Both the position numbers and the translations under genes were made by a program. A stretch of 64,000 nucleotides of DNA from NCBI GenBank assembly GCA_012295275.1, contig CM022668.1:7812001-7876000 (forward strand), in the 5' to 3' direction. Under the pieces are notes generated by a model. It worked only from the letters and a program-made list of their open reading frames with translations, searched no databases and had not been told where the DNA came from. The DNA is from Chrysomallon squamiferum. Its lineage: Eukaryota > Animalia > Mollusca. Below, piece by piece: positions 1 to 23,144 of this stretch (position 1 is the stretch's first letter; every line of letters starts with the position of its first letter).

Positions 1-161
1 GCAGCCATGGTTGCTTTTCAGCACAGAACCATGTAGTGTTTCGTGTGGAGCAGTTGGAATGCAGAACATTTTATATAAGAGATTCTGCATAAACACTGGT
101 GTGGGATGTGTCGGTCATTCAAGCATGTCTGGTAGAAGAAAATGTCATATTAGATGTCCTG
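1..161 (+). CDS. Gene A TSP1 exon (partial, cut by the window edge)
   Basis: QPWLLFSTEPCSVSCGAVGMQNILYKRFC...C...CHIRCP; phase-1 donor g|gtatt at 162. Confidence 0.8.
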
Positions 162-21100: not shown

Positions 21101-23144
21101 ATTTTTTTTTTTTTTTTTTGGATTACTCTACTGTGGCAAAATGAAGTAAATCCCGTTTTGGCTGAAATCATGTTCAAAGAAAGGACAACTTGACTTGTAT
21201 TATATCCAGGCAAATATGTTCAAATTTAAATTTCTGCTGCAAGAAATTTTTGAAGCTGCAGGACTGTTGCATTAGCATTTATTTTAAATTTTGGTTGTGA
21301 CTGTTTGGGATTTTACTAGTTACTTTGTACATAATTATAGCAGTGACCTAGCATGCAGAGTGGCACTTATAACAGCAGAGAGGGAAATACACTGACTTGA
21401 AATTATAACATTGAATAATAGTTTTAAGATACTGGCAATAACAGATTTTGAGTTGCCATTTTGAAAGTCTTTTGTACTCATGTCAATGGACTAATTATTT
21501 TTAAAATATGCATTTTGTATCCTATTCATTTATACTGCTCTATTAAATTAGTGATACCACAATTAGCCAGACAAGTTTTTAAATATCCCTAATAGGTACC
21601 TAAATCTATCGATGAAACTACTAATTTTGTCATGATCTTGCAAATCAGTTCTTTAGGTCAGTTTTCAACATCAGCTCTAGGACTAATAATAATAATAATA
21701 ATAATAATAATAATAATAATAATGTGTACATTTTCTCAGTGAAGTTTTAAATCTCCAAATCAATTTTGGAAAATCTGTCAACATATATATATTTAAAATG
21801 CATCAGTTGGCTTTACTCTGATAGATTTAAGTTCTGTTTGGTAACTGCATTTCTCTCTGCTAAAATTATTAAAATTTATAGTAAGAAAGAAAGGTCAGAG
21901 CAAATGCCAAATCATCAGATAATTATAACATTACTGTCTTCAAATACCTTTATCGTGTCATTTTTGTCGATTGTTGAGAAATGTTTTGACATCCTGTCAC
22001 GAAAATGCCATTTTTTTTAAAAAGTGGTCAATAATATTTTATTTTTATTTGTACTTAGTATAAATGTAATATGCCGGTTTGCAAAGAATGATATGTTATG
22101 CAACTTTGATCATCAAATTCAATTAAATAAACTAGATATTTTCAGTGTTTTCAGAATTATTTCATTTTGCCAGAGTAGAGAGGGAAGAATTAAAATTAAC
22201 TGCACGTTTCTAAACATGAAACTGAACAATAAACACCGTGTAACAATAAACAAATAAAAGGTTTTTAAAAAGTTCCATGTATTTGCAGTTGCTAGTTTTA
22301 TATTATTTGTAAATAACTGACAAAAACATTATTATTATTATTATTATTATTATATTTGAAATAAATTGTATAACATTACTTTTTTAGGTCCTGAATCTAG
22401 TTCTGAGGGATCATCTTATGCATTGATGACATATGGCAGTAGTCTTTTAATAATAATACTTGTTGCAATTATGGTGTAAGATATTATTATTATTATTATT
22501 GTTATTATTTTTATTATTGTTATGCCACCACTACTACTAGTACATCTAATACTGCTACTACAACAGTCATCACTACTATTAACATTATTGCTACTCGAAG
22601 GGCTTGTGTACTTGTTGCTATACACTTCTAACACCAGTAATAACAGTTAAAATTTCCTTCACAATTCTGAAGAACTGTATATGTTTCCAGGTATCGTCAT
22701 AGAAAAAACAAAGCTGAGCTATATGAACAGGCTGATGCTGGATCACAGAAAGAAGCTGGAGGAGATATAGACGCGAATAAAGATATAGAGCAAGAAAATG
22801 AAACAGACATACAGGAGCCTGCAAAGGAAGAGGCAAAACTGGATAAAGAAGGTATTAATGACGATGGAGTGTGGAAAGGAAGGGTAGAAAGGAGAGGGAG
22901 TTTAGCACGTCGAGACAGTGTAGGTAGAAGAGACAGTTCAGGAAGGCGTCCAAGTTTAGAGAGGAGAGACAGTCAAACACGAAGAGGAAGCAGCCATGAA
23001 GGTAACCCAAGGAAACCAAGCAAGGCAAACACACCGAGCAGACCAAAGAAACCACAAGAAAAAAGACCAAGTGATCCTGCTAAATGTAAAAATCCTAAAG
23101 GTGGAAAGTTACCTAAAACTAACAGAGGACCAGATAAGATATGA
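1..23144 (+). CDS. Gene A (5'-partial, multi-exon): type I membrane protein TSP1-GON-GON-TSP1-GON-TSP1-GON-GON-TSP1-GON-GON-TSP1-TSP1, then Ser/Thr/Gly repeat stalk, EGF-like module, TM and cytoplasmic tail
   Basis: Predicted exons: <1-161, 454-740, 969-1142, 2278-2416, 2807-3090, 3553-3714, 4258-4396, 4660-4848, 5212-5501, 5683-5851, 6213-6354, 6763-6951, 7199-7467, 7965-8123, 8508-8646, 8990-9276, 9496-9669, 10091-10229, 11452-11640, 12030-12313, 12599-12769, 13150-13288, 14257-14540, 14998-15171, 15644-15782, 16065-16256, 17228-17422, 18564-19488, (19961-20074 tentative), 20388-20504, 20871-21029, 22388-22475, 22691-23144. All are AG/GT bounded with compatible phases, apart from two +1 A insertions (~5790, ~18634). 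GON motifs match the ADAMTS9/20/GON-1 GON domain: SC..K....DGEY.L, IYC.NM...P.EY..L, F.KIRI, DFTFA...G.P.P....GDCY, G.F..DLR.TG, CGG.CG.C. Confidence 0.85.
454..2416 (+). CDS. Gene A GON domain 1 (exons 454-740, 969-1142, 2278-2416)
   Basis: RPKSCKDVK..EDGEYILYP..FYCYNMT..PVEYVSL / DFTFSESVGRPLPYGETGDCYS..CGMKGQFTIDLRETG / VQWTKSG..MCGGACGYC. Confidence 0.9.
1310..2130 (-). mobile_element. Degenerate non-LTR retrotransposon (RTE-like LINE) reverse-transcriptase 3' fragment in a gene A intron
   Basis: Minus-strand peptides DVRQRYILSPALFYMLLDNII (compare RT GVRQGCxLSPxLFN) and IKIRLYRSLIISILLYS (compare the RTE C-terminal TKIRLYxxLVxSVLLYG). Broken by frameshifts and more GC-rich than the flanking intron. 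Confidence 0.7.
2807..4396 (+). CDS. Gene A GON domain 2 (exons 2807-3090, 3553-3714, 4258-4396)
   Basis: NCAVLK..KDGEYRL..IYCHNM / DFTYATSIGKPIPFTESGDCYS / VFWIKKG..QCGGFCGYC. Confidence 0.9.
4660..4848 (+). CDS. Gene A TSP1 exon
   Basis: VDGGWSGWVRYHVQSCSVSCGGNGIRTVVYRRGCDNPRP...CSGP...CYLNC; phase 1-1. Confidence 0.9.
5212..6354 (+). CDS. Gene A GON domain 3 (exons 5212-5501, 5683-5851 containing a +1 frameshift, 6213-6354)
   Basis: SCSDLK..KDGEYILYP..VYCYNM / DFTFATTSGKPIPFGQSGDCYS then, after the shift, NCGLKGYFVMDFRDTGLKLN / VISWQQEG..KCDGFCASC. Confidence 0.85.
6763..6951 (+). CDS. Gene A TSP1 exon (not in the ORF track)
   Basis: VDGGWTPWIIHSKEPCSVSCGYPGRRTVTYKRACENPKPSILGADCTGPDARHIIVSCYVNCA. 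Confidence 0.9.
7199..8646 (+). CDS. Gene A GON domain 4 (exons 7199-7467, 7965-8123, 8508-8646)
   Basis: SSCTELK..EDHEYTLYP..IYCHNMTGTPKEYVTL / DFTFASTNGRPLPYGESGQCYA / LTWYQKG..YCDGLCAYC. Confidence 0.9.
8990..10229 (+). CDS. Gene A GON domain 5 (exons 8990-9276, 9496-9669, 10091-10229)
   Basis: PINCAHIK..KDIEYTLYP..IFCYKM / DFTFTQTIKTPIPYGEAGDCYS / VMWHATG..QCGGFCGYC. Confidence 0.9.
11452..11640 (+). CDS. Gene A TSP1 exon (not in the ORF track)
   Basis: VNGAWSSWITYNTGPCSVSCGGYGERNVTYRRSCDRPKPSPNGKQCPGVSSKSEIQQCMISCR. Confidence 0.9.
12030..13288 (+). CDS. Gene A GON domain 6 (exons 12030-12313, 12599-12769, 13150-13288)
   Basis: PSSCMHLK..KDGEYTLY..IYCHNM / DFTFAAVLNRPIPYGQSGDCYA / VVWTSEG..RCGGWCAEC. 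Confidence 0.9.
14257..15782 (+). CDS. Gene A GON domain 7 (exons 14257-14540, 14998-15171, 15644-15782)
   Basis: AERCADLK..KDGDYTLYP..IYCHNM / DFTFAVTTGRRLMFTETGDCYS / PVWVIEG..MCGGFCGKC. Confidence 0.9.
16065..17422 (+). CDS. Gene A tandem TSP1 exons (16065-16256, 17228-17422)
   Basis: MSWSSWVVYKKEPCSVKCDEYG..FRRTC.. and VDGFWSDWVKVKESACSVSCGRKGTVNVVYERQCNDPKPQNGGSDCWG..SCENNC. Confidence 0.85.
17870..18510. repeat. Degenerate (AGT/GGT)n trinucleotide tract
   Basis: agtagtggtagt runs in the intron before the stalk exon; source of the poly-Val ORF. Confidence 0.85.
18564..19488 (+). CDS. Gene A stalk exon with a 16-aa repeat and a charged low-complexity region
   Basis: Acceptor gtgaag|tc gives VIKKRAAEMNKTSQDSDGTPEAAE. 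A +1 A near 18634 then leads into ORF 18612-19520. Phase-1 donor aga g|gtagt at 19489. Confidence 0.7.
18578..19019 (+). repeat. Coding 48-bp tandem repeat, about 9 copies (AAELNKTSQDSGGTSG)
   Basis: Unit gcagctgaattgaacaaaacatcacaggattctggtggtacatcagga, with SQD/PHN and NKT/NET variants. Confidence 0.95.
20871..21029 (+). CDS. Gene A EGF-like exon (MEGF/SCARF type)
   Basis: CEIGYYGEDCKLLCSTRHCLEPNDTCDVEDGRCESGCALPYIGVDCQSVTLL; phase 1-1. Confidence 0.8.
22388..23144 (+). CDS. Gene A TM exon (22388-22475) and terminal cytoplasmic exon (22691-23144)
   Basis: YALMTYGSSLLIIILVAIMV|YRHRKNK is a hydrophobic helix followed by a basic stop-transfer, joined by a phase-2 intron as in genes B and D. 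It is in frame with ORF 22869-23144. Confidence 0.75.

Follow-up and report, generated by a model that had tools for sequence, protein, structure and literature searches.

Is the GON domain, a single terminal module in ADAMTS9, ADAMTS20 and GON-1, also used as a repeated building block of proteins that are not proteases? The question is raised by a large gene at the beginning of a 64,000-nt stretch of Chrysomallon squamiferum DNA (assembly GCA_012295275.1, contig CM022668.1, positions 7,812,001 to 7,876,000 of the forward strand), referred to below as the window. The DNA of the window is that of an animal, AT-rich and rich in microsatellites. An original prediction, made from the letters alone, had proposed that this gene reuses GON as a repeated module of a membrane-anchored protein without a protease. 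Our analysis supports this proposal with an RNA contig and with two paralogues in the same window, the joints to the transmembrane (TM) exon being predicted.

Results

Tandem GON and TSP1 Exons of the Large Gene

The large gene was modelled as 32 exons on the forward strand, from position 2 of the window to a stop codon ending at position 23144 (Table 1), with AG/GT at all internal exon boundaries. The Pfam family PF08685 matched all 21 GON exon pieces with E values from 7.6e-14 to 0.026, and 18 of them passed the gathering cut-off alone. Profile positions 1–99, 101–152 and 154–197 were each covered seven times by these exons. The seven domains share pairwise identities of 40–52%, and each of them contains eight cysteines. 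The matches and identities confirmed seven complete, diverged GON domains (G) arranged with TSP1 repeats (T) in the predicted order T-GG-T-G-T-GG-T-GG-T-T.

Pfam families of the TSP type matched three of the six TSP1 exons, every one below the cut-off. Meanwhile, the WxxW, CSxxC and RxRxC motifs and the six-cysteine TSP1 pattern are conserved in the aligned TSP exons, and a profile built from the ten TSP-like exons of the window found thrombospondin-1 at E 5.5e-13. Pfam run on the exons, a check proposed with the prediction, recognised GON in all pieces and left the TSP1 and EGF-like modules below the cut-off singly. The exon phases recur along the gene, being 1-0, 0-0 and 0-1 in the GON triplets and 1-1 in the single TSP1 exons.

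Neither a protease nor a disintegrin or spacer domain was found by Pfam in the 2,332 amino acids (aa) of the large gene that lie in the window, and a scan for HExxH in the same residues was negative. The predicted absence of these regions thus holds for this part of the protein, the N-terminus lying before the window. It should be noted that a 59-bp tandem repeat of 3.5 copies (7780–7986, + strand) multiplies the acceptor and the first bases of GON4 exon b and creates decoy acceptors; the offsets of the RNA contig described below agree with the last acceptor.

Predicted Stalk, Membrane Anchor and Tail

Downstream of the array, the exon model has a stalk, an EGF-like module, a predicted TM helix and a tail, in the same order as originally read. 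In the stalk, a unit of 16 aa that combines Ser-Gly pairs with an N-glycan sequon is repeated; 16 Ser-Gly pairs and eight sequons lie within 135 aa. The Ser-Gly pairs and the acidic tyrosines of the stalk presumably mark glycosaminoglycan attachment and tyrosine sulfation. The DSL match of the EGF-like exon (E 0.007) stays below the Pfam cut-off. The best 19-residue hydropathy window of the TM candidate scores 2.37, compared with 1.61 for the next best, and is followed by YRHRKNK. The tail contains six RRxS motifs, which we take to be consensus sites of protein kinase A (PKA), spaced exactly six residues; none of 10,000 shuffles reached six. The large gene therefore very probably encodes at least seven GON domains, six TSP1 repeats and a predicted single-helix anchor, with predicted joints from stalk to TM exon.

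Frameshifts and RNA Evidence

The assembly contains two +1 frameshifts in the large gene, one in GON3 exon b (A-run 5787–5793) and the other in the second stalk repeat (18633–18635). Both were missed by the original prediction, although its reading of the domains was borne out. The frame as assembled ends at aa 673 in GON3, or, if the second break alone is counted, at aa 1792 in the stalk. The first break was checked over positions 5140–5860 in four sequencing runs from three studies, and all four leave out one base at 5785–5786. As the frameshift is absent from all the runs, it is an assembly error.

An RNA run yielded one contig of 5,363 nt with a depth of 48 and a GT..AG splice joint at 5501–5683. 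Its three short cross-repeat matches land exactly at the GON2, GON4 and GON6 positions of the exon model, and the letters at its loose ends are identical to the model at 29/30 and 30/30 positions. One cross-repeat piece has no mismatches according to the read tool and four according to the exon model, its flanking letters agreeing at 29/30. From GON2 through GON6, the contig agrees with the exon model to the base. The gene is expressed as RNA, with its GON and TSP1 exons on one contig.

Offsets place the first base of the contig 15 nt upstream of position 2 and its last base 91 nt beyond the T6 donor; by its length, the contig runs from T1 into the stalk. Its start lies inside the T1 exon, away from any splice site, and may reflect a near-identical repeat or an alternative upstream sequence, possibly with further GON/TSP1 units.

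The 31-mer graph of the exon model branches at the stalk minisatellite. If the contig is assumed to stop at this branch, its 91-nt end is reproduced by one of the 23 acceptor/indel combinations, namely acceptor 18564 with one A of 18633–18635 absent and the frame open. Since this sole combination is the open-frame stalk, it supports both the T6–stalk splice and an assembly error at the second break, so that the second frameshift is very likely an artefact as well. For positions 12030–20500, the word share in the RNA run was 0.22, compared with 0.17 without the stalk body and 0.25 expected with it; a share above 0.17 indirectly favours a transcribed stalk body. Metagenome contigs were also scanned with short patterns spanning the second break; no matches were obtained, which is uninformative.

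Two Protease-Free Paralogues in the Window

Two further GON genes, paralogues B and C, were located by tblastn of the window. Gene B stands tail to tail with the large gene and has its TM exon in frame, and the TM segment of gene C has a hydropathy of 2.95. The first exons of both are signal-peptide-like (hydropathy 1.7–1.8), and in both the predicted signal-peptide exon is spliced straight onto GON. Of the six GON exons in B and C, one matches Pfam GON at E 1.5e-4 and the other five are above the cut-off. The exon phases of B and C equal those of the large gene, the phase 1-2 TM exon included. No protease was found in the complete paralogues, and HExxH is absent from gene C.

As both paralogues are complete and free of a protease, the three genes indicate a small gastropod family of GON–TSP1 membrane proteins and not an ADAMTS remnant. 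The large gene is best read, on the sequence evidence, as an internally amplified member of this local GON–TSP1–TM family. The tail of gene C (63549–63789, + strand) ends in YTRF and also holds YERM and YEIN, which we take to be tyrosine-based sorting or SH2-type motifs.

Relatives of the GON Domains

A phmmer search of 1.84 billion representatives gave 707 matches at E <= 0.001, the best 150 of which were examined. A seven-GON protein would be expected near the top of this ranking, which covers annotated genomes. Among the best 150, one GON was counted in 124 proteins, two in 15, three in 7 and five in 1, and 3 contained a GON fragment only; none had more than five GONs or a TSP1 match after GON. 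Nine carried an ADAMTS-type zinc motif. A hydrophobic segment followed GON in two, both of them single-GON amphioxus proteins.

Pfam partners were scanned in 44 of these 150 relatives. Outside ADAMTS, GON is combined with PAN, Sushi, EGF, C-type lectin, F5/8, WSC, SUEL, Link, VWA, Kazal and kringle domains, with a C-terminal TM helix (P0054, P0055) and with a seven-transmembrane receptor model (P0006). In bacteria-like proteins, it is fused to kinases, peptidases or further GONs. Such proteins are widespread (P0003, P0011, P0034, P0036, P0076, P0111) and have up to five tandem copies, and in some of them GON is the outer domain of TM kinases. Among named proteins, those of the gastropods Gigantopelta aegis and Haliotis are nearest to the window GONs. 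The Haliotis proteins P0016, P0018 and P0021, called 'ADAMTS9-like' by NCBI, are GON proteins of 317–367 aa, two of them with PAN and all without a protease, so this label misleads.

Two GON trees were built by quick searches and assessed by the Shimodaira–Hasegawa-like approximate likelihood ratio test (SH-aLRT) only. The 83-row tree contains a clade of ADAMTS GONs (100) and a bacterial clade (97), and places the window GONs among mollusc non-ADAMTS GONs with a support of 85–91. The window GONs lie outside the ADAMTS clade in both the 83-row and the 39-row tree. The GON of gene C shares one clade with GON1–7 (SH-aLRT 99 and 97 in the 83-row and 39-row trees, respectively), and that of gene B is placed near them together with a Gigantopelta domain. 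When a joint clade of window and ADAMTS GONs was put to the approximately unbiased (AU) test with 39 rows, it was not rejected (p 0.25), so a separate origin is likely but unproven. With the first domain of a Gigantopelta protein that has no protease, the window GONs share 40–46% identity, compared with 28–35% for ADAMTS20.

With TSP1 exon T2 as the query, a weak search of 10 candidates yielded a single rotifer protein of 1,899 aa and no orthologue. A search with GON7 exon a gave one match among 172 candidates, which covered sizes of 166–2000 aa only.

Fold of the GON Domain

The second GON domain of P0001 was modelled by AlphaFold2 from 72 sequences, with a predicted local distance difference test score (pLDDT) of 97.8. 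In the model, a beta-rich body follows a short helix. A wide structural search gave COLFI at Z 5.1 (root-mean-square deviation (rmsd) 4.5, 72 aligned, residues 1–80) and fibrinogen at Z 3.8 (rmsd 2.3, 43 aligned); the best Z of 5.1 is below the usual noise level of 7–8. The GON profile matched COLFI (E 5e-5), intelectin (0.007) and MFAP4 (0.07) at their starts, in a range up to 0.08; clusters of COLFI and fibrinogen came from the ESM Atlas at 0.86–0.90. From the profile matches and the model, GON seems to share an N-terminal subdomain with the COLFI/fibrinogen/intelectin group. The remaining 120–150 residues had no clear match among solved folds. The PDB sequences searched contained no solved GON structure, and phmmer of P0001 against PDB gave nothing meaningful.

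Table 1. Positions of the exons and domains of the large gene and its two paralogues in the window.
Feature	Position	Strand	Exons	Evidence and remarks
TSP1 T1	2–161	+		Aligns with other TSP exons; 5' part of exon precedes the window
GON1	454–2416	+	454–740, 969–1142, 2278–2416	PF08685 on all three exons
GON2	2807–4396	+	2807–3090, 3553–3714, 4258–4396	PF08685; RNA contig anchor 2959–2988
TSP1 T2	4660–4848	+		TSP_1 E 0.0017; TSP profile
GON3	5212–6354	+	5212–5501, 5683–5851, 6213–6354	PF08685; RNA joint 5501–5683
TSP1 T3	6763–6951	+		TSP_1 E 0.008
GON4	7199–8646	+	7199–7467, 7965–8123, 8508–8646	PF08685; RNA contig anchor 7351–7384
GON5	8990–10229	+	8990–9276, 9496–9669, 10091–10229	PF08685
TSP1 T4	11452–11640	+		TSP1_ADAMTS E 0.056; TSP exon alignment
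GON6	12030–13288	+	12030–12313, 12599–12769, 13150–13288	PF08685; RNA contig anchor 12163–12198
GON7	14257–15782	+	14257–14540, 14998–15171, 15644–15782	PF08685
TSP1 T5	16065–16256	+		No Pfam match alone; W/C/R pattern kept
TSP1 T6	17228–17422	+		No Pfam match alone; W/C/R pattern kept
Stalk exon	18564–19488	+		9.2 copies of a 48-bp unit (Tandem Repeats Finder), then basic/acidic region with YDYDYD
Short acidic/Ser-Gln exon	20388–20504	+		Phase-compatible open frame; donor uncertain
EGF-like module	20871–21029	+		DSL E 0.007, EGF_TEN E 0.049; donor uncertain
Predicted TM exon	22388–22475	+		Phase 1 to 2; hydropathy; phases equal those of TM exons of genes B and C
Cytoplasmic tail and stop codon	22691–23144	+		150 aa; six RRxS motifs
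Paralogue B	25902–33827	-	33827–33776, 33466–33168, 32662–32483, 31840–31702, 29681–29484, 28668–28480, 27730–27551, 27034–26941, 25992–25902	Signal peptide-GON-TSP1x3-TM-tail; 473 aa; 9 exons; open frame; AG/GT ends; PF08685
Paralogue C	57896–63789	+	57896–57947, 58298–58578, 58868–59041, 59966–60104, 60642–60824, 61463 or 61472–61924, 62439–62532, 63549–63789	Signal peptide-GON-TSP1-stalk-TM-tail; 538–541 aa; 8 exons; open frame; PF08685

Other Genes and Repeats

A Shisa-like gene lies at 39715–42681 (+ strand), with a signal-peptide-like start, an RGG-rich segment and a tail rich in PPPY/PY repeats. Its Cys-rich exon (40883–41032) matches Shisa_N at E 5.8e-5, above the cut-off, and its TM exon lies near 41515–41640. 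A second RGG/STWKAAF copy and more TM-like exons at 52650–52781 (+), 47950–48189 (+) and 51020–51313 (-) suggest that additional paralogues of the Shisa-like gene, or pieces of such, lie between genes B and C. Two related minisatellite arrays of 30–33 bp (45984–46455 and 52992–53991), which have long open frames with MKRGRxRL-type repeats, are probably non-coding.

Discussion

ADAMTS proteases are defined by pro, metalloprotease (HEXXHXBGXXHD), disintegrin, Cys-rich and spacer domains; in ADAMTS9/20/GON-1 the GON module is terminal and has 10 cysteines, and in this account they are without EGF, TM or cytoplasmic modules (PMC4448532). The large gene departs from ADAMTS9/20/GON-1 in two of these features, a single terminal 10-Cys GON and, given the predicted joints, the absence of EGF, TM and tail modules. 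It probably arose by ordinary exon shuffling.

The literature on the GON domain is nearly all on ADAMTS, PF08685 otherwise appearing in a domain table only. The literature searched, mostly outside subscription journals, described neither a tandem-GON TM family nor an expansion of GON in molluscs. The view that the architecture is undescribed stands for the seven-copy array with TSP1, which was found in none of the databases and papers searched. It does not stand for the combination of GON and TM outside ADAMTS, as a Pfam survey of 2012 reports GON proteins that lack protease and TSP but have a signal or TM region (PMC3338439). GON outside ADAMTS, also with TM, is known in outline and common in molluscs, amphioxus and bacteria. 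What is new, within the databases and papers searched, is the seven-copy internal GON array with TSP1 on a predicted membrane stalk, in a family of three genes.

We propose that the product of the large gene is a multivalent surface receptor that would bind glycans or matrix on other cells or microbes, and we give this reading a probability of about 0.5. By analogy, the fusion of non-ADAMTS GONs to C-type lectin, F5/8, Link and other binding modules would favour such a role. As predicted for paralogues B and C, the protein would enter the secretory pathway by a signal peptide encoded upstream of the window. The array would have grown from a one-GON ancestor like gene C by duplication of three-exon GON and one-exon TSP1 cassettes, both of which enter and leave in phase 1, followed by divergence to the present identities. 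Such growth and divergence would provide avidity and possibly several specificities. GON would serve as the ligand-binding unit, and TSP1, with its WxxW and CSVSCG motifs, as a spacer and co-binder. The stalk, bearing N-glycans and probably Ser-Gly glycosaminoglycan chains, would raise the array above the membrane, and its acidic tyrosines may be sulfated. In a tail without an enzyme, the six RRxS sites could let a PKA-type kinase tune traffic or adaptor binding.

A bolder form of this proposal, which we hold only tentatively, is that GON is an unrecognised lectin-like domain of largely undescribed fold, distantly related to fibrinogen, COLFI and intelectin, and used in gastropod surface pattern-recognition receptors for microbes or symbionts. 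The receptors would then form a family in which each chain carries between one and seven, or even more, diverged GONs and a six-site phospho-switch in the tail. Invertebrate fibrinogen-related and intelectin proteins act as lectins. The likeness of GON to fibrinogen and COLFI is N-terminal only, with Z under 8, so no lectin or binding site can be transferred to GON.

The array could instead be freed from the membrane, at basic sites of the stalk or in an isoform ending before the TM exon, and could structure or organise mucus, cuticle or a shell-type matrix as a shed or secreted protein. This would agree with the KKR with which the stalk starts and with other basic clusters, with the proteoglycan-like character of the stalk, with the predicted status of the joint to the TM exon and with the nearest named relatives, which have GON-GON, EGF-GON or PAN-GON architectures, lack a TM and are secreted. 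The model, however, contains no RxKR/RxRR furin site, all downstream exons are in frame to the TM and the patterned tail, and a TM exon with the same phases is kept in both paralogues, so we consider this role possible, if doubtful. A role in the early secretory pathway, as a membrane-anchored factor for cargo or quality control whose GONs face the lumen of the endoplasmic reticulum (ER) or the ER–Golgi intermediate compartment and assist the export of secreted cargo, as for the GON of GON-1/ADAMTS9, seems rather unlikely. Type I topology would indeed put all seven GONs in the lumen, but none of the three tails ends in what we take to be a KKxx-type signal, and TSP1, EGF and the predicted glycosylated stalk are surface-type parts. 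The GON module functions in the ER independently of the protease, which speaks for such a factor; a tag placed behind GON impairs both localisation and rescue, and GON is invariably the last domain (PMC3338439), whereas all GONs of the large gene are internal.

A derived ADAMTS9/20/GON-1, with protease, disintegrin and spacer upstream of the window, an amplified GON and a gained TM, is improbable. In its favour, a TSP1 repeat precedes GON1 where the gene leaves the window, an arrangement known from ADAMTS, and the AU test does not reject the joint clade. Nevertheless, the signal peptide joins GON directly in both paralogues, the ADAMTS GONs make a clade of their own, and the window GONs are closer in identity to the protease-free Gigantopelta domain than to ADAMTS20. 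They also have eight cysteines in place of the 10 of ADAMTS9/20, and EGF, TM and cytoplasmic modules are foreign to ADAMTS (PMC4448532). Meanwhile, the two frameshifts, the second judged an error from the contig end, could point to a pseudogene or to a false tandem expansion in the assembly. This is very improbable: the first break is missing from all four runs, all eight cysteines are kept in all seven GONs, spliced RNA is present, and the contig end matches an open-frame stalk. In addition, the repeats are only 40–52% identical, so they are not collapsed or duplicated copies.

Several points weigh against the multivalent receptor. The N-terminus of the large gene lies before the window, the hydropathy of the predicted TM helix is modest (2.37), and the joints from the stalk through the acidic/Ser-Gln, EGF-like and TM exons to the tail are predicted from open frame and phases, the RNA link ending at the stalk. 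The second frameshift was resolved indirectly, through the contig end. The modelled GON is that of Gigantopelta, 36–40% identical to the window GONs; Foldseek gave no match to it at E <= 0.001, and the likeness to fibrinogen and COLFI is confined to its N-terminal 45–80 residues. The literature searched named no ligand for any GON domain, and the sole experimental work found places GON action inside the ER (PMC3338439).

An expressed seven-GON protein on a predicted membrane stalk breaks the rule, as given in PMC3338439, that GON is always most C-terminal. The main value of this gene family is that it makes GON function testable: the short paralogues B and C offer ectodomains that are naturally free of a protease and could serve directly in ligand screens and in determining a structure, and a GON ligand would bear on the role of the module in human ADAMTS9/20. 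The analysis also shows that many mollusc 'ADAMTS9-like' genes are small GON proteins without a protease.

Compared with known systems, the large gene shares with ADAMTS9/ADAMTS20/GON-1 true GONs, TSP1 repeats and a predicted passage through the secretory pathway. It differs from them in having seven internal GONs instead of one terminal GON, eight cysteines per GON instead of 10, TSP1 after GON, and a predicted EGF module, TM and tail; the protease, disintegrin and spacer are lacking from its part in the window and from paralogues B and C. The closest sequence relatives are the protease-free Gigantopelta aegis proteins LOC121372976 (signal peptide-GON-GON), LOC121384483 (EGF-GON-GON) and XP_041348350.1 (EGF-GONx3), in which GONs are also in tandem, and the Haliotis PAN-GON proteins. 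Unlike the large gene, these are secreted and have a C-terminal GON, at most three copies, no TSP1 and no TM. The amphioxus mosaics (Branchiostoma XP_035686690.1, KAI8520704.1; P0006) likewise place an internal GON among binding domains and before a membrane anchor, but the GON is single and on a separate tree branch, and its partners are C-type lectin, kringle, WSC and LCCL domains, not TSP1. Among bacterial proteins, P0034 (five GONs) and P0003 and P0036 (three each) are tandem, P0034 and P0036 being protease-free, and the kinase-TM-GON proteins P0011 and P0111 carry GON on the outside of a membrane receptor; they differ by their own clade (97), the lack of TSP1 and at most five copies. Fibrinogen-related and intelectin lectins of invertebrates may be compared in the N-terminal motif of GON, which resembles the start of COLFI, fibrinogen and intelectin. 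A model of how the protein may work is also provided by invertebrate proteins with thrombospondin repeats (TSR) and TM, modular TSP1-bearing surface proteins, TSR proteins having been linked to symbiont recognition (PMC7663992). From these and from the intelectin lectins, the large gene differs in that its main module is GON.

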